IMG/VR virus record: IMGVR_UViG_3300036984_000039
Span: 1 to 64,000 of that record
Origin: a virus
Taxonomy: Duplodnaviria; Caudoviricetes
Length of the DNA: 64,000 nucleotides
Reading direction: 5' to 3' (one strand)
The notes beneath the pieces are model-generated. The model was not told the origin of the DNA. It ran no database searches and saw only the letters and a program-made list of their open reading frames with translations. Of the stretch, positions 3,001 to 38,534 are shown one piece after another (position 1 is the first letter of the stretch; each line of letters starts with the position of its first letter). The translations under genes were made by a program, and so were the position numbers.

Positions 3001-4613
3001 TTATCAAAACGGGCATCGATGCACTGGAGTCAATCAGGGATTACGTGCCATTGACTAGCCTTAACGTGGTGGACGTGAGCCTCCAACAGTTGGCGACGTT
3101 CATCAAGCGGGTGGTGAATCTACTGGGAGCGGCTTCCGCACTGATCACCGACGAGCTAATGACCGCAGCGCAAAAAATGGCGACCGCGGCGGGGCCAGCA
3201 TTGGGACTTATCAAAACGGGCATCGACGCACTGATGTCAATCAAGGACTTCATTCCGCTGCCCAGTCTCGACGCGGTGGACGTGAGCTTGCAACAGCTTG
3301 CGGAATTCGTGCAGCGGGTGGTGAACTTGCTCGGCGTGACGGCAGCGCTAATCAGCGACGAACTGCTGGTTGCGGCACAAAAGTTGGCGACCGGTGCCGG
3401 GCCGGTGCTCGGTATCGTGAAGTCGGCTGTTGACGCGCTGATGTCGCTCAAGGATTACGTATCACCAGCGGCATTGGCTCTCGACGCTTTTACAGCCGAT
3501 ATAGGCCAATTGGTGCTGCGCCTTAGCACGTGGGCGGCCGGTAATCTAACTGATGCACTCGTCAAGGCCGCACAGAATTTCGGCGCGGCAACGGCAACGC
3601 TATTTAGCGGGCTGGGCGGTGCGTTTACCACCTTGACCAGCGTGCAGGAGTATGTCGGGCCGACCGAAGATGCACTGAACCGTTTCATGGCGGACGTTTT
3701 TGCACTGGTAAACAAGATAGCGATATGGGCGGCGGGCAATCTGACCGAGGAATCAGCCAAAGCAGCAGGTTTATTCGGTGATGCCACAGGTGGCTTGTTC
3801 GGCGGACTCGCGGATGCTGTAAGCGTCTTCAAGGATTTGCAGAGCTACATTCCGGTGCTCAACAGCCGCATCCAGGGCTTCCTGGACTCCGTAACCTACG
3901 CTTACAGCCTGATCGAGGACTATGCATCTCACGCTGGCGTACAGGCCGCTACAGCGGCAACTACGGCGTTTGCCACGGCTGCTGGTGGGGTGTTCGGGAT
4001 GCTGGGCACGGCGCTGGGCGTCGTCAAACAACTCACAGATGGCGCGGCAAGTTCGGCGCTGACCTTCAAAATCCGCATGGCCGATCTAATCGAGCGCATC
4101 GCAGGCACGCTGAGCGCCTGGCGCGCATATGTGGCAAAGGAGAATCTGGTAAGCTGGCTACCGACCGCGACGGAGTTTGGCACGGCGCTCGAACAGGTAT
4201 TTGGTGTGCTGGAACGCGCGCTGAATCTGTTCACAGCACTGGGCGAGCATGGCTTACCGAGTATGGCGCAGTTCCAGGATTTCATCGACTACGTGGCCAA
4301 GATCATGCAGTCGATTGCTGGAGGTCTGGGCGGCGGCGGGGATGCCGAGAGCCTGGGCGCGGGGTTGGGCAGCGCCATTGGGCACGGCATGGCGCTAGGG
4401 CTGGCCGGGGCAACCGCCGAGGTGCAGGCGGCGGCGCGCCAGTTGGCGCTGGCGGTGGAGCCGGGGCTACTGGGCGGCAGCTATACGGTGACGAGCGAGC
4501 GGCGCATCGTCGTGGAGTTCACGGGGCAGGCGGGCGGCGGCGTGCCGCTCAATCCGGCGCAGTTCGAATTGCTAAAAAACGAACTCGCCTACGCCATAAG
4601 AATTGGGGCCTAG
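36..4613 (+). CDS. Phage tail tape measure protein (5' part lies outside the window)
   Basis: Long Ala/Leu-rich helical ORF, open from the window edge. Contains the LGIASPSTVF motif typical of tape measure proteins and internal tandem repeats; lies upstream of tail genes. Confidence 0.85.
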   Translation: MTKIGEWLLAVLTEFDKKSVVWGKETAARLQAMWQNALDEWAIERDKNRALQVKSLETWWESLLADWEVERDKNRALQAKSLETCWQGILDAWGVERDKNKTSTSKSLAEWWQGVIADTNELVAWDKALSKAGTDVITGLIDGLDSQFKDLERKIKEVAKTIQDAIPDPLQLLYNVGRDIIAGLAQGIVDMKDHLLRRAQELFDALPVWARKILGIASPSTVFEALGRDTMAGFALGLTAGAVPVLGSITNTIQAIIAEFAALAGWAASPNSGFGSAKAVLEPLSDMLTDLQGILEGLDALADFVPRTNIAAKLPTLFEGIKTIVRGFADLSGWAADPAHGFWGAKAVLVPLGEMLESLPSILDAVAAIAAYDTKLAKAQAGAALVIEAIQVIISKLAELNRKLVPAELTDALDLARVLGQLAEGLAAVPTLLEVINGALSLSERLLRGFVIPDIAQLRRVGTFIAQLVTAVGEAAALVDGELRAAAIQLATSVGPVLTIVGDAIDLISYIGTYVWKNQQAWARLTFDSYQIAQFIYYLIAWLGNMSLQLRSGLLPAARELVDAAGPASALVKTALEAIGNIGTYVWKDKYAWARLTFDGYQITQFIYYLITWLGNMSLQLRSGLLPAARELVDVAGPALALVKTALEAISYIGTYVWKDQQAWARLTFDGYQIAQFIYYFIAWLGNMSLQLRSGLLPAARELVATAGPALALVKTALEAIAAVRDYVPVPSLNAIDKSLQQLVTFVQRLVNLLGTATALITDKLLEAAQKLTTAAGPALGLIKTGIDALTAIKDYVLLPSLNAVDKSLQQLVTFIQRVVNLLGTATALITDELITAAQKLTTAAGPALGLIKTGIDALTAIKGFVPLPTLNAVDVSLQQLVTFVKRVVNLLGATSALVTDELMTAAQKMAAAAGPALGIIKTGIDALMSIKDYVPLPSLNAVDVSLQQLVTFVKRVVNLLGAASALITDELITAAQKLATAAGPALGLIKTGIDALESIRDYVPLTSLNVVDVSLQQLATFIKRVVNLLGAASALITDELMTAAQKMATAAGPALGLIKTGIDALMSIKDFIPLPSLDAVDVSLQQLAEFVQRVVNLLGVTAALISDELLVAAQKLATGAGPVLGIVKSAVDALMSLKDYVSPAALALDAFTADIGQLVLRLSTWAAGNLTDALVKAAQNFGAATATLFSGLGGAFTTLTSVQEYVGPTEDALNRFMADVFALVNKIAIWAAGNLTEESAKAAGLFGDATGGLFGGLADAVSVFKDLQSYIPVLNSRIQGFLDSVTYAYSLIEDYASHAGVQAATAATTAFATAAGGVFGMLGTALGVVKQLTDGAASSALTFKIRMADLIERIAGTLSAWRAYVAKENLVSWLPTATEFGTALEQVFGVLERALNLFTALGEHGLPSMAQFQDFIDYVAKIMQSIAGGLGGGGDAESLGAGLGSAIGHGMALGLAGATAEVQAAARQLALAVEPGLLGGSYTVTSERRIVVEFTGQAGGGVPLNPAQFELLKNELAYAIRIGA
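1557..3452 (+). repeat. Coding tandem repeats in the tape measure gene: 3 x 213 bp (71 aa), then 6 x 207 bp (69 aa)
   Basis: TATGTCTGGAAG at 1575, 1788, 2001 (period 213). GATTACGT-type anchor at 2211, 2418, 2832, 3039, 3453 (period 207). Also 3 x 78 bp at 165, 243, 321. Confidence 0.9.
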
Positions 4614-15668: not shown

Positions 15669-16738
15669 CCACGTCGAAGTTAAGTTATCACTTCCAATTG
15701 TTGGGCGGCGAGGAAGCCAACATCGCCGCGGCGTCGGAGGCCAAGTGGATCAAGGTCATCGATCCACCGAATGATAATCCGTTTCCCGGCAAACAGATCA
15801 TCGGGCGCACCTATGTCGATGACGGCGAGGCGAACGCGATGGTCGCGCTTGGCACGCTCGGCGGGGAACTGTGGTATGCCAAGTGGCGCGACTTCTACAA
15901 GTCCCGGCCCTACGTGACGCTATGGGAAGGCCCGAACGAGCCGCAGCCGATCCACGACGCGGCTTTCCGCAAGCAGTTGGTGGACTTCACGCTCAGATGG
16001 GCGCAACTGATGCACGCCAATAATATGAAAATATTGGCGCTGTGTCTCTCGGTCGGTTGCCCGGACATCCCGGAGTTTCCCGACTTCCTGCCGCTGATCG
16101 GCCACGTGGACGCTATCGCCAACCACGAGTACAGCGCGCCCGCCATGTGGGACGGCCAAAGTTGGTACTGCCTGCGTTACCGGCGCTTCTTCGAGATCAT
16201 CCGCGCCGCGGGTAAGGTCGTGCCACCGTGGTTCATCACCGAGGCTGGCATCGACGGCGGGGTGCTCGACCCGCCACGCACGAAGACCGGCTGGAAGACC
16301 TTCACGACGCCAGCAGGGTACCTGGCGCAATTGGCATGGTACGACGCGGAACTGCGCAAAGACCCGGAGATCGTGGCGGCGACCGTGTTCACGTCACGCC
16401 CGAATGCTGACTGGCAGGACTTCAACGTAGACCCGGACATTTCGCGCCGTATCGCGGCGCACCTGGCGGCCACGCAGGACAACCCACCGACCGACACCCT
16501 GGCGACGCGGCTGCGCCTGGCCGCGGAAGCCAATGACGTGCTACAGGTCAACCCGACCGCGGCGTTGTGCAAGGCCGGGGCCGCGCGCAACCTGTGGCCG
16601 ACCAGCAACGAATTCAGCGTCGTCTTCGGCGGAAGCACGTACATCGCGCAGCGGTTTCGCGATCCGCGCTCCAACGCCGTGACGGTGCTGTACTGCCTGC
16701 TCGGTCAATGGGACGTGGTGCGAGAGATCAACTACTAA
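15665..16738 (+). CDS. Clan GH-A-like glycoside hydrolase, putative lysin
   Basis: GPNEP acid/base, NHEY and FITEAG nucleophile motifs; adjacent to a holin-like gene. Confidence 0.65.
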   Translation: MTTSKLSYHFQLLGGEEANIAAASEAKWIKVIDPPNDNPFPGKQIIGRTYVDDGEANAMVALGTLGGELWYAKWRDFYKSRPYVTLWEGPNEPQPIHDAAFRKQLVDFTLRWAQLMHANNMKILALCLSVGCPDIPEFPDFLPLIGHVDAIANHEYSAPAMWDGQSWYCLRYRRFFEIIRAAGKVVPPWFITEAGIDGGVLDPPRTKTGWKTFTTPAGYLAQLAWYDAELRKDPEIVAATVFTSRPNADWQDFNVDPDISRRIAAHLAATQDNPPTDTLATRLRLAAEANDVLQVNPTAALCKAGAARNLWPTSNEFSVVFGGSTYIAQRFRDPRSNAVTVLYCLLGQWDVVREINY

Positions 16739-16814
16739 GCGCCGATGAGCGGGCGCGACGCGCGGCTGCCTCAAGACGCCTGGGGCACGCTTTGGGCAAC
16801 CTTTGGAGGCGACT

Positions 16815-16952
16815 ATGCAACGGTTCAATTCTGTTGGTTCGATCCTGGCGATCATCTTGCTGATCCTCGCCATCGTCCTGGCAGTCATCGGGAAGTTGCC
16901 GATGCTGGAAGCGGTGTTATTCATCCTGGCGGCGCTTGGCATCCTACTCTAA
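16815..16952 (+). CDS. Holin-like membrane protein (45 aa, two TM segments)
   Basis: Not in the ORF track. GGAGG RBS; MQRFNSVGSILAIILLILAIVLAVIGKLPMLEAVLFILAALGILL. Confidence 0.65.
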   Translation: MQRFNSVGSILAIILLILAIVLAVIGKLPMLEAVLFILAALGILL

Positions 16953-16995
16953 GCCGTAGCGGCCAGAATGATAATATCAAATTAGGAGACAGATC

Positions 16996-17202
16996 ATGGG
17001 TACACTTCTGGAACAAATCGCGGCGATAGTGGCAACGTTGAACGAGGTCAAGGCGCTGTGTGAGACAATTGTCGCAGCGTCAGCGAAGCAGGCAACGGAT
17101 TACGCCGCAGCGGAGGCGGCGCAAGACACGGCGGGAGTTTCATCCTCGGAGATCGTGGCCCTGGCGCAACAGGTGATCGCGAAGATCGGGGCCGTCGCAT
17201 AG
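16996..17202 (+). CDS. Small helical hypothetical protein
   Basis: AGGAG RBS; last gene before the terminator. Confidence 0.65.
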   Translation: MGTLLEQIAAIVATLNEVKALCETIVAASAKQATDYAAAEAAQDTAGVSSSEIVALAQQVIAKIGAVA

Positions 17203-17226
17203 GACGGAATGATAATCTGCCAGCAC

Positions 17227-17260
17227 AAGGCCCGCTGTGGATCGGCGGGTTTTGTGTTTC
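17227..17260 (+). terminator. Rho-independent terminator of the tail/lysis operon
   Basis: GGCCCGCTG-tggat-CGGCGGGTT stem followed by TTGTGTTT. Confidence 0.75.
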
Positions 17261-17434
17261 TACTCAGAATAAGACCGCCCTGCACCGACGCCCTCGAAAG
17301 CGCCGAAGCAGGGCGGCTGTGCGGTACGGGTTGCGACTCGGCCCCAAGCCGTCCAGCCAACCCGCCTTTGCCAAGACCTCAGCCGCCACAAGCCCACCTG
17401 GGCGTCGTAGCGAGCCGCTACGCAACGCTACGCC

Positions 17435-17511
17435 GCGTAACGTGAAATCCTACGTGCTGCGCTCACCAAGCTCCACCGGCGCAGCCGTCACGGTGGAAGC
17501 CGCGGGACAAA
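17435..17511 (-). repeat. Degenerate attC-like site
   Basis: Shares CCACCGGCGCAGCCGTCACGGTGGAAGC with the intact sites. R' is GTTACGC; R'' is lost. Confidence 0.6.
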
Positions 17512-17685
17512 ACCGTCTGACCAATTCCCACGGGCGGCGAGGCACGCGGCCTGCACGCCGCCGCATGGCGCAAAGTCCGCTTGTCCCAGGCCACAGCCGC
17601 ATTCGATCTTGCCATCCTCGACAACGCATAGGCCGTCGTATCCATGTTCTGCTAGATACGCTGCTGCAATTTGAGTTACATCCAT
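17488..17685 (-). CDS. Cassette ORF 3, Cys-rich, 65 aa
   Basis: Starts after GTTAGGC and GAGGA; YLAEHGYDGLC..ECGCG..DFAPC. Confidence 0.7.
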   Translation of the reverse strand: MDVTQIAAAYLAEHGYDGLCVVEDGKIECGCGLGQADFAPCGGVQAACLAARGNWSDGFVPRLPP

Positions 17686-17711
17686 TATCTCACATCCTCG
17701 CCGGTAGTCCG

Positions 17712-17808
17712 GCCTAACGGTTGGGTTCACCTGCGGCTGCGCCGTCGTCAACGTTCGGTGCGGCAAGATCCACCGGCGCAGCCGTCACGGTGGAAGCGAT
17801 GGTTAGAC
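17712..17808 (-). mobile_element. attC recombination site (97 bp)
   Basis: Minus strand: GTCTAAC-5-CTTCCACC...palindrome...GGTGAAC-6-GTTAGGC. Confidence 0.85.
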
Positions 17809-18006
17809 GGGACGGTCCCACTTTTCACCAGGCTTACCTGAGCCAGCACAGGGATGGTGGTCGTGCCCGCTGGCAAGTTGCGGCATGTTTACCCGATACC
17901 CTCCGCGCTTCACGCGGATGAAACCATGACGTACAGCCTTTCCGTTTTTCGTGGCACATACATCGAAACCACAATGCGCGCAGATCACTGTCCCGTATTT
18001 CCCCAT
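17803..18006 (-). CDS. Cassette ORF 2, Zn-finger-like, 67 aa
   Basis: GAGGTG RBS after GTTAGAC; CAHC...H...CAGSG. Stop TAA lies inside the attC R'' box. Confidence 0.75.
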   Translation of the reverse strand: MGKYGTVICAHCGFDVCATKNGKAVRHGFIRVKRGGYRVNMPQLASGHDHHPCAGSGKPGEKWDRPV

Positions 18007-18027
18007 GACTCACCTCGAAGCAGTCCC

Positions 18028-18124
18028 GTCTAACGGTTGGGTTCACCTGCGGCTGCGCCGTCGTCAACGTCCGATGCGGCAGAATCCACCGGCGCAGCCG
18101 TCACGGTGGAAGCCGTTGTTAGAC
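18028..18124 (-). mobile_element. attC recombination site (97 bp)
   Basis: Minus strand: GTCTAAC-aacgg-CTTCCACC...GGTGAAC-ccaacc-GTTAGAC; near-identical to 17712-17808. Confidence 0.85.
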
Positions 18125-18293
18125 GGAGGCTGGTGCAGATACCACTTCGTCCGATGACAATGTGTTTCAGGTTGCAAGCATTCCATCCCCCCTGTGTATC
18201 ACTATGCAGGTTGTTCGCGCAGTCAAGTTCATTGCAGAGCACCTTTACTATCGGTTCCACGTCGAAGGTGACTGATAAATGTCCTGGCCCCAT
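18030..18293 (-). CDS. Cassette ORF 1, Cys-rich; reads through its attC
   Basis: GGAGG RBS after GTTAGAC; C-x4-C-x2-N...C-x6-I...C pattern. Confidence 0.65.
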   Translation of the reverse strand: MGPGHLSVTFDVEPIVKVLCNELDCANNLHSDTQGGWNACNLKHIVIGRSGICTSLRLTTASTVTAAPVDSAASDVDDGAAAGEPNR

Positions 18294-18308
18294 GTTTCCT
18301 CCAAAGCC

Positions 18309-18349
18309 GTCTAACTCCATATAGGCGGAAACTTTCCGCCTAATCGCCC
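18309..18349 (-). repeat. Partial short attC-like site (L''/L'/R' present, R'' absent)
   Basis: Minus strand ATTAGGCG-gaaagtttc-CGCCTAT-atgga-GTTAGAC. Confidence 0.55.
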
Positions 18350-18450
18350 ACCTGGGCGTCGATTGCTGCGATAAGCCGTCCCTGCCTGTGGTCGGAACGC
18401 ATTTCGTTACACAGGCAGAGCGGCGCCAGCAAAGCGGGTTCTGCAGCCCG

Positions 18451-19437
18451 CTAGTTGCCTCTGAAAACGAACGGCAGATACAGCCGCCATACCTGCGGCG
18501 GTGCCTCGCGATACTGGATGTTGTAGTCTCTGCATCCTGCGAGGTCTCCCGTCATGTACACCTCGGCCATCACGTCGCCGTCGAACGCTATGTCATCCCA
18601 GACTGCTTCGAGTTTGCCGTTGCCTATGCTGGCAAACTTCGTCCACTCCCCGGTAGCGTCTTGCCGATAGAGCAGGATCACGGGATAGACGCCCGGAGCG
18701 CCAATGGCTGACAGCGTCCTCGTGTACCCCGGCGAGTGCACGAGCCGGAAGACGTCTACGAAGTCGCCCTGCATGTTTGTGCTGTCATCTTGAGGCACGC
18801 CGGGATACAGCGCCACGGCGGTGCTGGCCGTGTCGTTCGGCTCCCGCTCCGCGCCGGCGCATAGCGCACGCGGGAGCGTCGGACGTGCGCCCGTGATGGT
18901 GCCGCCGACTCCGCCAGCCTGCCAGCGGATCGCGCCACCCTCGTGGGTGCCGCGATACACCACCCCGAACATGCGCACAGACTCCGAGCCGATCGGTAGC
19001 AGTTTCAGCGCCGGGCCAGCGACTGTCCAGGTCATCGGCCCGTTGACTTCGGTCACGGCGGCGGTATCAGTCCACAGAATAAGCGCAGGCGCGGCGCTGG
19101 TGCGTAGGGTGTACAGGAAACCAGTGTAGCGTTCCCCCGCAACCTCGAACATGTTCGGGCCGCTCAGATATTCCAGCGTCGGGGTAATGCCCGGCGTCGG
19201 CCAGGCCACCGGCCGCAGACTCAGACTGCTCGACGCACTCAGTGTGCGCAGGCCAACCGCGTTCGGCGGCGGGGTCGGCGTGCATTCCGGTATCGTTATG
19301 CCGGCTGGTGCGTTAGCACTTGTGAAGGCATGGGAGCTTTCGACACGATCTGCTGGCGGGGTCTTGGCCGACCCCGCCATTGTCGTTACTGGTACGGCCA
19401 CCAGCATGAGAGCCAATATTGCCACGATAATCCCCAT
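18451..19437 (-). CDS. Secreted protein with a PPC-like domain and a Chloroflexota-type C-terminal motif
   Basis: Signal peptide, PTP linkers, EREPNDTASTA, C-terminal RLYLPFVFRGN. Confidence 0.75.
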   Translation of the reverse strand: MGIIVAILALMLVAVPVTTMAGSAKTPPADRVESSHAFTSANAPAGITIPECTPTPPPNAVGLRTLSASSSLSLRPVAWPTPGITPTLEYLSGPNMFEVAGERYTGFLYTLRTSAAPALILWTDTAAVTEVNGPMTWTVAGPALKLLPIGSESVRMFGVVYRGTHEGGAIRWQAGGVGGTITGARPTLPRALCAGAEREPNDTASTAVALYPGVPQDDSTNMQGDFVDVFRLVHSPGYTRTLSAIGAPGVYPVILLYRQDATGEWTKFASIGNGKLEAVWDDIAFDGDVMAEVYMTGDLAGCRDYNIQYREAPPQVWRLYLPFVFRGN

Positions 19438-19790: not shown

Positions 19791-20570
19791 TTACAGACTT
19801 GGGCATGAAGCTCCTTCTAAGGTCAGCAGCGGGCCAACCGTTTGCGTTAGATACTCTTGGCACAAGTCAACGCCGATGCCGCGTCGCCCGTTCGCCTCGG
19901 CAACGTGCACGGTCGTTCCTGAGCCGACGTAGGGATCAAGCACGGTGTCACCAACAAACGAGTACAGTTTCATCAAGCGCCGCGGAATCTCGGCGGGAAA
20001 CGGCGCGGGGTGCCAGGAAGCCGACACCGGCTTGATCGTCCATACCGAACGTGTCCACTCCAGAAACTCGTCGCGTGTAATATCGTTCTCACCAGGGCCG
20101 CGCCCGGACGTGCCTTTGTGCGCTACGATGATTTCCTCATGCCCATCGCGCAGACTCGGATCGCTGGCGGATTGCCATGATCCCCAGGCCGTACCGTTGT
20201 TTTGATTCGCCAAGCCCATTTTGGCCCAAATGATATGCCCGCGCAACTCAAAGCCCGCCGTCTGCAAGGCCAGTGTCGTATGCGCGCCGATAGGTTTATA
20301 GCCTCCCGGCAATGAGGGTCGGTCGTAACCCATCGGCACGTTGACGGCGATACGTCCACCGTCGCAGAGCACCCGGTAACACTCCCGCCACGCTAGGAGC
20401 ATATCGGCAAGGTACGCGTCATAGGTCGGCCATGACGCGTATTCCTCTTTGGCGTTGTAGTAGGGCGGACTCGTAATAACAAGCTGGACACTACCTGGCG
20501 CGATTTGATCCAGGTCGCGTGCGTCGCCCTGCCAGAACTCACTATGCTCAGACCGATAGTGCAAACGCAT
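19791..20570 (-). CDS. DNA methyltransferase, N4C/N6A beta class
   Basis: ITSPPYY, HPAPFP, VLDPYVGSGTT. Confidence 0.92.
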   Translation of the reverse strand: MRLHYRSEHSEFWQGDARDLDQIAPGSVQLVITSPPYYNAKEEYASWPTYDAYLADMLLAWRECYRVLCDGGRIAVNVPMGYDRPSLPGGYKPIGAHTTLALQTAGFELRGHIIWAKMGLANQNNGTAWGSWQSASDPSLRDGHEEIIVAHKGTSGRGPGENDITRDEFLEWTRSVWTIKPVSASWHPAPFPAEIPRRLMKLYSFVGDTVLDPYVGSGTTVHVAEANGRRGIGVDLCQEYLTQTVGPLLTLEGASCPSL

Positions 20571-22621
20571 TATGTCACATCTCCTACCTGGAAGTGCGGC
20601 GCGTCCAGGAATTGCCGAAACGTACCGGTCGGGCCAAGCGTGTTTTTGTCAAGGCGCACGTCGATGACGCCTTCGTGGTTCTTGTCGGGATGTAACAGGA
20701 TCACGACGTTCGCCTTGTCAGTCTTTTGCCCTGAACCGCGAATCGCGCCGCGATCCAACTCGCTGAAACTGACGTTTTTGCCGTATTTAGTGAATTGACT
20801 TAGCGCCAGCAAAGGCACTTCATGCTGCTCCGACCAGCTTTTTAGCATCTCAACATCGGCGGCTTCGCGCTTCTCGCCATCCGAACCATAGGCTTTGAGT
20901 TGCGCGGCAGCCGGCGCGGCTTTCTCCAGGTAGTCGATAATCACGGCGTCACATTGCCCGGCAGCGCGCAAGGGAGCCAGCGCGCGCAAGACTAACTCCA
21001 ACGACTGCCCTGGTGTATGCAGGTACGTGATCTCGCCGGGCCAGGCCAACAGGCGCGCCTTGGCTTCTTCCAGCGCGTAGAATTCGGTCGGCGTCAATTC
21101 ACCCGCCAGCTTGAGGCGGCGGCGTGCGATGGCCGTGTGGCGCGCGGCGCGCCGATCCAGCATGATGATCTTGCTCAACTCGAAGTGCACGAAGACGACA
21201 TGATGACCGTGATGCGCCCAATGCTCGGCAATGCACTCAGCGTAAGAACTGTTATGCGTTACGGTCATGTCGCCTAACAAGAAAAGCCCATCGCCATCTA
21301 GTGTAAATCCAAAGAAGTCATCAACTCCGGCTTCATCAACCGTAATACCTGTTACGCGCCAATCTTTATTAATCGTGCGTGCCGCAGGTATTTTGCGCGC
21401 TACGCGCAGCGGAATGCGCGTTACGTCGCCACCTATCATGACGCGCCATACCGTGCAGCTAAAGTCACGCGCCTTGATCGTGGCTTGTTTTGCGGCGATA
21501 TGCGTGCGAAAGCCTAACGAATCAGCCAGGAACTTGATCTGACGCGCCAGATACTCGCGCTTTTGCGTAATCTCGAAGCCCTTACGAGCGTAGCTACCAT
21601 CGCTGTCCAGCAGACCGGCTAATAAGCGCAGACGCACATCGGCACTGTTATACAGGTATTGCGGCGGAATATGCTTATTGTCAAGCACGCCTAATTCACC
21701 CAACTTGCGCGTCGGCGTATTAGCGTTGCGTTTTTCACCACCGCCGCGCCCGTTTGATATCGTGATTTTCCAGCACGTATCGCGGTCGTTGTTGGATGTG
21801 ACCTTGATGCCGCAATCCATAGTAGTTGCGAAGGCGCGCAACCACTCGATAATCTCGTAATCCGGATTGTAGATAGTTGATGTTTTGCTCGCACCATCAC
21901 CCAACCATAAGCCCAAAAAGTAGGGATCGAGCGGAACGTCTTGGGTGGGAAACTCAACCGGGACTTTATACCCCTGGATATAGCGTTGCAGATAGCCATG
22001 CTTCAACTGACGTACTTCATTCACCGTCATTTCAACGAGTGTCTTAGAGCCGTCCTCATTGCGCCGTAATAGTGCCAGAACATGGTTACCATTGACCTGA
22101 TAGTCCATACCAGCGGTTTGACGTATCCAGTACATAGGTTCGCGACCACGACTGAGTGACAGGATGCGCCGCGCCTTAGAATCCGGCCCTAATAGCACGT
22201 CACCCACTTGTAGGGTTTCAACAGGCCGTATCGTGCCGTCGAACATCAGCACTGGCGTACCGCGGCCTAAGCACTTGCCGCTACCATCCGGCCCGGCCAG
22301 GATTGCCAGGATGCCCGCCTCAGCCGGATCAATGAAGTTATTCCAGCTTGTCCAGGGCCAGTTGAAGGACAGGCGTTCTTCCGGTGGCAGCTTGGACAAC
22401 GCCACGCGGCGCGCAATCTCCTGCGCGTAAAGCTCGAAGCTCTGCGGCCAAGTCATCACGGCGCTGCTATTATCATCCGGGCGTAGTTTGCCAGTCTTGG
22501 CGGTCAGCCAGTCGTAGATGGCCTCCGGCGCTTCGAGCGCATACGTGCGCCGATACAACTCCTGGGCAATCTGCATCCACTGTTCGTGACGCGGATCTTC
22601 AAAGAAGGATGTGCTATCCAT
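20570..22621 (-). CDS. dnaB: DnaB-like replicative helicase with an intein
   Basis: Walker A GPDGSGK|S, IIDYL, LSQF, IRGSG, KN motifs. Confidence 0.88.
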   Translation of the reverse strand: MDSTSFFEDPRHEQWMQIAQELYRRTYALEAPEAIYDWLTAKTGKLRPDDNSSAVMTWPQSFELYAQEIARRVALSKLPPEERLSFNWPWTSWNNFIDPAEAGILAILAGPDGSGKCLGRGTPVLMFDGTIRPVETLQVGDVLLGPDSKARRILSLSRGREPMYWIRQTAGMDYQVNGNHVLALLRRNEDGSKTLVEMTVNEVRQLKHGYLQRYIQGYKVPVEFPTQDVPLDPYFLGLWLGDGASKTSTIYNPDYEIIEWLRAFATTMDCGIKVTSNNDRDTCWKITISNGRGGGEKRNANTPTRKLGELGVLDNKHIPPQYLYNSADVRLRLLAGLLDSDGSYARKGFEITQKREYLARQIKFLADSLGFRTHIAAKQATIKARDFSCTVWRVMIGGDVTRIPLRVARKIPAARTINKDWRVTGITVDEAGVDDFFGFTLDGDGLFLLGDMTVTHNSSYAECIAEHWAHHGHHVVFVHFELSKIIMLDRRAARHTAIARRRLKLAGELTPTEFYALEEAKARLLAWPGEITYLHTPGQSLELVLRALAPLRAAGQCDAVIIDYLEKAAPAAAQLKAYGSDGEKREAADVEMLKSWSEQHEVPLLALSQFTKYGKNVSFSELDRGAIRGSGQKTDKANVVILLHPDKNHEGVIDVRLDKNTLGPTGTFRQFLDAPHFQVGDVT
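21251..22273 (-). mobile_element. Intein with LAGLIDADG homing endonuclease (341 aa)
   Basis: Begins CLGRGTPVLMFDG and ends VTHN followed by Ser; LGLWLGDG and LAGLLDSDG blocks. Confidence 0.95.
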
Positions 22622-38306: not shown

Positions 38307-38534
38307 CTCCCTCGTCCTCATCCTCTACGGAAATCGTCGTCCAGCACTCCGGGCAGATGTGCGTGATGGCCCACTCGCGCTGATCTACGTCAAGCCATTG
38401 CCGGCGCGCTGCCTCCAAAAACTGCTGGCTACACTGGAGGCAGCGATCTGCGGCGTCCGCTTCCGCCTGCGTCGGCAGGCCCAGGCTGCGGGCCATGCCG
38501 TCGAGGAACTCCTGCAATGCGCCGGTACGTTGCA

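Follow-up and report, generated by a model that had tools for sequence, protein, structure and literature searches.

Phage-borne integron cassettes have been a known kind of element since 2023, when a survey of 10,705 phage genomes reported 3 complete integrons and 17 clusters of attC sites lacking integrases (CALINs), with 21 phages involved (Qi et al., 2023; PMC9892861). In that work the integrase IntI1 recombined phage attC sites, two sites of Tetrasphaera phage TJE1 having been tested, and a palindrome with inverted GTTRRRY motifs was noted upstream of the TJE1 CALIN (PMC9892861). As defined for IntegronFinder, a CALIN consists of at least two clustered attC sites without an integrase (PMC9024848). 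Here we describe a locus in the tailed-phage record IMGVR_UViG_3300036984_000039 of IMG/VR (107,546 bp, rated complete by CheckV), whose first 64 kb form the stretch analysed here (the window). It holds two intact attC sites 316 nt apart and one decayed site, all on one strand of an integrase-free genome, and we consider it very probable that these sites belong to a true integron-type array of cassettes lacking an integrase, that is, a CALIN. The first-pass annotation of this DNA had proposed a phage-resident array of this type, which is supported by matches to a covariance model of integrase-linked sites, by the cassette junctions of a wider site family and by related sites linked to an integron integrase; its remark that phages are considered to carry integrons rarely or not at all has been outdated by the phage CALINs and integrons reported in 2023 (PMC9892861). 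What is new is a clean case in a large uncultivated phage, with no new mechanism. New also are one homogeneous attC family with methyltransferase-rich cargo across many unrelated viral contigs, and the link of this type of site to an IntI-bearing bacterial genome with a real chromosomal integron.

TJE1 resembles the window locus in carrying a short array of single-gene attC cassettes, all in the same orientation, in a tailed phage without an integrase, with a palindrome with R-box-like arms immediately upstream. DNA methyltransferases are likewise frequent cargo, and the wording of the L box is close (GTTCGACCTGAC, against GTTCCACCTGAC in most members of the window's site family), both versions being found by the same covariance model (R2, below). 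In contrast to TJE1, the window's family is highly homogeneous and recurs, in arrays that reach 7 cassettes, on many viral and metagenome contigs that are uncultivated and unrelated to one another. Its sites are also longer, with 97 nt in the window, where their recombination is a prediction, compared with about 55-65 nt in TJE1.

The full attC anatomy that the first-pass annotation had ascribed to two 97-bp repeats was borne out for sites A and B, as were its partial site at 18309, which is a lone core, and its decayed site at 17435, which ends in a degenerate R' (Table 1). The outer cores of both intact sites agree with the attC consensus RYYYAAC (R'') and GTTRRRY (R'). Behind the 7-nt R'' come a 5-nt spacer (AACGG) and an 8-nt L'' box CTTCCACC with one extra C, followed by a 10-bp stem (CGGCTGCGCC/GGCGCAGCCG) and loop, the 7-nt L' box GGTGAAC, a 6-nt spacer (CCAACC) and R'. 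Since L'' pairs with L' leaving one C unpaired, the second attC box pair is present. Further bulges, G and A, lie on the same arm, which is the 5' arm of the top strand; on the bottom strand the bulged bases would be G, C and T. Over 105 nt, the two copies share 91% identity. When folded as single-stranded DNA, copy A surpassed 200 of 200 shuffles on both strands (z -4.3 and -5.5), and copy B did so less clearly (z -2.3 on both strands, with 5 and 2 of 200 shuffles folding at least as well). A competing inner hairpin, CCACCG...CGGTGG, was dropped as it showed no conservation across the site family.

The same R''/L''/L'/R' boxes and 5- and 6-nt spacers are found in class 1 integron cassettes (aadA1, aadA2, cmlA1 and others), which also have an extra base after GTT in L'' (aadA1 reads GTTCAAGC/GCTTAAC, compared with CTTCCACC/GGTGAAC here). 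Class 1 systems differ from the window array in their cargo, which consists of resistance genes instead of small Cys-rich proteins without a known family, and in having IntI1, attI1, a Pc promoter and a plasmid or transposon setting.

Table 1. Features of the cassette array, in window coordinates and in order of reading on the minus strand (ORF, open reading frame; RBS, ribosome-binding site; R1, covariance model of the site family).
Feature	Position	Strand	Description
16-bp perfect direct repeat CGACGCCCAGGTGGGC, upstream copy	18361-18346	-	Brackets the array
Palindromic hairpin TAGGCGGAAAGTTTCCGCCTA	18322-18342	-	Immediately upstream of cassette 1; from sequence and fold
Lone R'-type core GTTAGAC	18315-18309	-	Left boundary of cassette 1
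Cassette 1	18314-18034	-	281 nt, spanning TT of the first core through G of the attC A R'
ORF 1	18293-18030	-	87 aa, Cys-rich; GGAGG RBS 5 nt ahead of ATG
attC A	18124-18028	-	97 nt; R'' GTCTAAC 18124-18118, R' GTTAGAC 18034-18028; R1 96.4 bits, fold z -4.3
Cassette 2	18033-17718	-	316 nt; sole unit between two intact sites
ORF 2	18006-17803	-	67 aa, Cys-rich; stop TAA within R''
attC B	17808-17712	-	97 nt; R'' GTCTAAC 17808-17802, R' GTTAGGC 17718-17712; R1 90.5 bits
Cassette 3	17717-17441	-	277 nt; opens with leader GTTAGGCCGGACTACCGGCGAGGAT shared by unrelated cassettes elsewhere
ORF 3	17685-17488	-	65 aa, Cys-rich
Decayed attC C	17500-17435	-	5' half 17500-17467, 97% identical to site B; R'' core lost, 3' half diverged, R' degenerate (GTTACGC, 17441-17435)
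16-bp perfect direct repeat CGACGCCCAGGTGGGC, downstream copy	17407-17392	-	Brackets the array

Each of the three units delimited by these sites contains one Shine-Dalgarno-like motif and one small Cys-rich ORF. No sigma-70-like promoter was detected between 16900 and 18800, and no promoter-like site in any unit. The three promoterless one-ORF units of 277-316 bp with RBS that the first-pass annotation had outlined are therefore as described, and the single stop codon that it had placed in R'' is the TAA of ORF 2. Its claim that a cassette start is complementary to the cassette's own R'' over 12 bp holds for cassette 2, whose start GTTAGACGGGAC is complementary to its own end GTCCCGTCTAAC at 12 of 12 positions, compared with 10 of 12 in the array context of attC B. 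None of the three cassette proteins matched a Pfam or PHROG family; that of cassette 2 has two homologues in public assemblies, 96% and 77% identical.

ORF 1 runs through attC A and ends at a TAG inside R'. This read-through (window 18030-18124, minus strand) gives the protein approximately 31 extra residues (…LTTASTVTAAPVDSAASDVDDGAAAGEPNR), and a similar attC-encoded tail ends cassette ORFs in several other contigs by tblastn.

The site family was first found by exact and degenerate pattern scans, after which a covariance model (R1) was built from 38 sites. On the whole genome R1 reported A and B only, and no site copies were found in the 107,546 bp beyond those in the array. As a stand-in attC model we used R2, built from 11 sites downstream of a true IntI in the metagenome-assembled genome (MAG) G008. 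In the 64-kb window R2 matched site A at 53.9 bits and site B at 49.6 bits, both on the minus strand, and nothing else exceeded the 13.6 bits of site A on the plus strand; site C was absent as a full site from the output of both models. R2 passed its positive controls. In phage TJE1 the three sites that it found directly follow orf1-3 and score 41, 32 and 29 bits, with the next match at 12 bits; their number and layout agree with the published CALIN. In the class 1 integrons of a P1 isolate it found seven sites at annotated cassette-gene ends, one of them without an annotated gene before it, and their scores of 25-64 bits compare with 50-54 bits for the window sites. In an IMG/VR contig (L129) it found five sites divergent from the IntI gene. 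This contig (IMGVR_UViG_3300000053_000025, 4935-8969) encodes an IntI 57% identical to that of G008, with five attC sites on the opposite strand, and is a complete integron of classical layout whose sites fall outside the window's family.

Pattern scans traced the family to seven other IMG/VR contigs, one 7.9-kb MAG-binned contig and 30 metagenome contigs, and R1 found about 90 sites in same-strand arrays of 2-7 sites with a spacing of 180-1470 bp; about 35 viral and metagenome contigs carry the family. The median cassette is 522 bp long, and in 48 of 54 cassettes the longest ORF has the same orientation as the sites. A separate scan of genome contigs with a 20-mer of the inner stem gave 42 matches, 41 of which were chance occurrences in GC-rich genomes, leaving only L012 as real. 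In one site of L012 (1705-1774, minus strand) the central loop is inverted relative to the window sites, by a flip between the stem arms, and L' and R' are lost. One array-bearing contig is a 41.8-kb viral genome with direct terminal repeats (L053/G004); here the site ending a four-site array stands in the opposite orientation (3346-3447), and a solo site lies at 38431-38524, 35 kb from the array.

Across 73 aligned sites, 15 of the 19 L-box and stem (inner) pairs showed compensatory changes, and the inner-helix cells were paired in 96.5% of cases (95% overall), compared with 28-42% overall when the partner was slid. This alignment was fitted to the model, which somewhat favours structure; a MAFFT alignment made with no model fit gave 7 covarying pairs. 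CTAAC and GTTAG are near-invariant over the 73 sites, and the distal R'' and R' positions are often unpaired inside individual sites of an array. We compared the 14 nt from each R' with the next downstream R'', that is, with the other end of the same cassette, and found 6.0 of 9 variable positions complementary with a mean run of 8.3 nt. Compared with the R'' of the same site, the value was 3.9 of 9, close to the 3.7 of 9 of random pairing. Pairing with the own end exceeded pairing in context in 38 cassettes and fell below it in 9 (Wilcoxon p = 2.6e-7). Own-end pairing is the signature expected of units that would be cut within the R' core at G/TT (slash, cut) and could close into circles rebuilding their own attC.

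Comparison of related arrays at other loci showed that cassette content varies, with breakpoints in the R' core. A 615-nt cassette occurs in two contigs with different upstream and downstream cassettes, and identity stops after G/TTA. Another cassette is identical in two contigs whose sequences split at G/TTAG. A third stands in tandem behind two unrelated attC types, with identity beginning 2 nt before G/TT; since this junction is without homology, it gives no support for homologous recombination there. Because the site halves remain complementary, crossovers can fall only within about 12 nt around the R' core.

These junctions bear on an alternative in which the sites are intergenic phage hairpins, acting as terminators or as RNA-stabilising or regulatory elements, and the genes between them are shuffled by homologous recombination with no relation to integron integrases. 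Precedent for modular shuffling of this kind exists in the promoter/stem-loop 'mobile regulatory cassettes' (PeSLs) of T4-type phages, repeated stem-loops flanking small phage genes in plastic regions, for which such shuffling was reportedly proposed by Arbiol and colleagues in 2010. PeSLs carry promoters and recombine by homology, in contrast to the promoterless window sites with their integron cores and breaks at G/TT. The sites are indeed hairpins at gene ends, no integrase lies nearby, and an Rfam 15 scan of 16.5-19.5 kb gave chance-level hits only, with no family match; attC sites are themselves thought to be weak terminators (Qi et al., PMC9892861). Against this, the sites have no T-run, their R'' and R' cores follow the integron consensus, and the model of IntI-linked sites finds window, class 1 and TJE1 attC alike. 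Moreover, complementarity is kept between the halves of a site, whereas distal R' positions go with the following cassette, and one cassette is joined to two unrelated, non-homologous site types. We regard this alternative as very unlikely.

A true integron integrase next to related sites is seen in G008 (record title: uncultured Acidobacteriota bacterium), which also holds the 7.9-kb contig of the family. Its IntI scores 462 bits on TIGR02249 (cut-off 265) and lies on a chromosomal contig, C33, with MFS/acyltransferase and TetR neighbours. R1 placed 12 attC sites downstream of IntI on the same strand, each behind one ORF, and between 4262 and 14922 of this contig (L109, G008:C33) intI and cassettes share one strand, which is the less common 'inverted' layout. 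This sedentary chromosomal integron resembles the window array in attC architecture and in related sequence (CTAAC-AACGG ... CGTTAGGC), in having single-gene cassettes all on one strand, and in a GTTAGGC core that recurs at the attI-side junction, where the first cassette begins (...ACATTAA G/TTAGGC ATTTAAT ATG). It differs in its intI gene, its attI-like junction, its chromosomal location and its at least 12 cassettes, compared with two intact sites and no integrase in the phage. The G008 sites form a related, distinct subfamily.

By analogy with characterised integrons, the bottom strand of each site (the plus strand of the window) would fold into an imperfect hairpin, and an integron integrase would bind the R and L boxes and cut R' at G/TT; the part of R' past the cut would therefore belong to the next cassette. 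With no tyrosine recombinase of its own, the phage would depend on IntI supplied in trans, most plausibly by an integron-bearing host during infection, for cassettes to be excised, captured or reshuffled. We infer such a host-derived IntI, which would act on the phage sites, from the canonical sites, from the related sites linked to IntI in G008 and from the published IntI1 results. The first-pass annotation had ascribed shuffling to an IntI-like recombinase of either host or phage; its phage half fails with the absence of a recombinase from the genome, and its host half is the one kept here as plausible. Cassette 2 lies between two intact sites and is therefore the only formally excisable unit at present, and cassette 3 would have become fixed through decay of its site.

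At the head of the array a lone GTTAGAC stands behind the palindromic hairpin, with no promoter-like site detected. The arms of this hairpin, TAGGCGGAAAGTTTCCGCCTA, are similar to the R'/R'' extensions TTAGGCGG and CCGCCTA, making it a candidate cassette entry site; the first cassette may have entered there or at a secondary site. IntI can insert cassettes at non-att genome sites that need little beyond GWT (Loot et al., 10.1101/2022.09.11.507474). For attI sites, we know of no general model.

Several observations weigh against the view that the region is an integron-type array served by a host IntI. No tyrosine recombinase was found in the 107,546-bp genome (TIGR02249 and PF00589, E <= 1), which extends to the whole record the absence of an integrase that the first-pass annotation had noted for the window, and with no intI beside the array the locus is not a complete integron. 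Nor was an IntI-like recombinase found in 240 kb of array-bearing contigs, and IntI was never seen beside the exact window site family. The matching bacterial integron sites score 24-60 bits on R1, compared with 80-115 bits for phage-type sites. In samples in which 26 candidates per genome were scored, R1 found sites in 17 of 151 genomes of the G008 phylum (best 63.5 bits; 16 of 150 without the unpublished genome G057) and in 5 of 151 Chloroflexota genomes (best 44 bits); neither sample reaches 80-115 bits or pinpoints a host. Where the first-pass annotation had looked to Chloroflexota hosts for IntI with matching attC, IntI-linked related sites were thus found in G008, and the Chloroflexota matches were weaker. 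Searching the order of G008 for closer attC gave nothing above 51 bits except G008's own sites (60.5). The 16-bp direct repeats that bracket the array are not an IntI product, which suggests at least one acquisition step by other recombination. Lastly, the R2 training sites were chosen and aligned with R1, leaving its independence incomplete; the TJE1 and class 1 controls offset this dependence, and R2 is not merely echoing the phage family.

A recombinase other than IntI could run the sites, either a Xer-like enzyme of the host or one that some phage of the lineage encodes. Three related viral contigs do encode generic tyrosine recombinases, in one case at about 2 kb from an array. None adjoins its array, they score 8-44 bits on the IntI model compared with its cut-off of 265, and the window's own genome has none at all. 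With canonical attC sites in the window and related ones behind a true IntI, we find this explanation very unlikely.

A more serious alternative, which we nonetheless judge rather unlikely, is that the array was made in a bacterial integron, entered the phage once by illegitimate or microhomology-mediated recombination, and now persists as a block of inert passengers. The perfect 16-bp direct repeat around the array favours such a single entry: CGACGCCCAGGTGGGC has only two copies in the 64-kb window, with 0.11 expected by chance, the copies coincide with the end coordinates given by the first-pass annotation (17392 and 18361), and the sequence was not found at other array-bearing loci. The repeats may stem from recombination in a separate step or from duplication of a terminator-like hairpin. 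The decayed terminal site, the first boundary reduced to a lone core, and the lack of a recombinase in the phage fit as well, and CALINs have generally been proposed to be degraded integrons (PMC9024848). On the other side, the intact sites A and B have lost none of their paired positions and reach scores typical of canonical attC, and same-family arrays in other phage contigs clearly swap whole cassettes. In addition, a contig from sediment run X3, a run in which the flanking genes are present at ~95% identity, matches the unique upstream flank and turns to unrelated sequence right after GTTAG of the first core (place 18311). This divergence weakly suggests a close relative with different content at the first-core boundary.

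The flanks of the array appear to vary as well. One X3 contig joins 16725 to 17274 via 30 other letters, replacing a holin-like gene and a 68-aa gene (16726-17273), and in contigs of X3 and X4 the segment 18365-18471, with the hairpins that follow the 328-aa gene, is missing; array flanks therefore vary among relatives too. Logan contig depth was low over the cassette bodies in X2-X4, and non-coverage by contigs was not counted as evidence.

Misassembly of bacterial integron DNA into a phage contig is the least likely explanation of all, and we give it hardly any weight. Repeats do break short-read assemblies, and Logan unitigs from X1, the source sediment run, stop at every attC copy. Both unique flanks are nevertheless covered in X1, and its unitigs run unbroken from them into the boundary sites (two records). 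The array is also embedded 17 kb deep in a contig of 107 kb and flanked on both sides by phage genes (tape measure, portal and DnaB helicase), and independent viral contigs carry arrays, including the 41.8-kb genome with direct terminal repeats.

DNA methyltransferases make up 16 of the 50 distinct cassette ORFs of the family (11 N6_N4, 3 MT-A70 and 2 C5), and the other cargo includes one extracytoplasmic function (ECF) sigma factor and one phage endonuclease I homologue. Arrays with orphan methyltransferases include L006, L053, L062, L065, L070, L076, L080, L082 and others. This methyltransferase-rich cargo fits cassettes selected in phages and agrees with the cassettes of Qi et al. A leader, GTTAGGCC-GGACTACCGGCGAGG(A/G), opens at least 8 unrelated cassettes, with a small CCGG hairpin and an RBS at its end; it is carried by cassette 3 (window 17694-17718, minus strand) and by L012, L052, L006, L077, L083 and L090. 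Cassettes that share the leader diverge at the ORF, and a shared translation leader of this kind is unusual for integron cassettes.

It is possible, and we advance this tentatively, that unrelated uncultivated lake and sediment phages share a private pool of cassettes with canonical attC sites, traded via a host integrase in trans. The proposal draws on the single homogeneous family, on orphan DNA methyltransferases making up about one-third of the cargo, and on the common 5' leader of many cassettes. If true, integron machinery would serve as a route of counter-defence gene exchange among phages, and the cassettes would not be chance bacterial hitch-hikers; the methyltransferase cargo would help phages evade restriction. 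The array supports the idea that phages carry an integron cassette pool and benefit from it, and sites A and B are concrete substrates for recombination assays.

The record encodes tailed-phage proteins including a tape measure protein, a portal, an SbcD-like nuclease, a DNA ligase, an FtsK-like protein and a DnaB-type helicase. The array sits at the 3' end of a block of replication genes on the minus strand, where these genes converge with a lysis and tail block; a minus-strand gene for a 328-aa protein ends at 18451 and is followed by small hairpins, the lone core GTTAGAC and the three short units. Searching the array region by blastn against 50,697 deposited phage genomes gave no match, and no relatives of the flanking 328-aa protein were found in IMG/VR. 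Comparing all flanking proteins with the array-bearing loci by tblastn showed no synteny, the sole match being a 29% identical helicase in L012. With no relatives of the 328-aa protein and no synteny at array-bearing loci, the same locus is not comparable in assembled relatives. The DnaB-type replicative helicase (window 20570-22621, minus strand) contains an intein, with Hint and LAGLIDADG homing endonuclease domains between its N-terminal part and DnaB_C.

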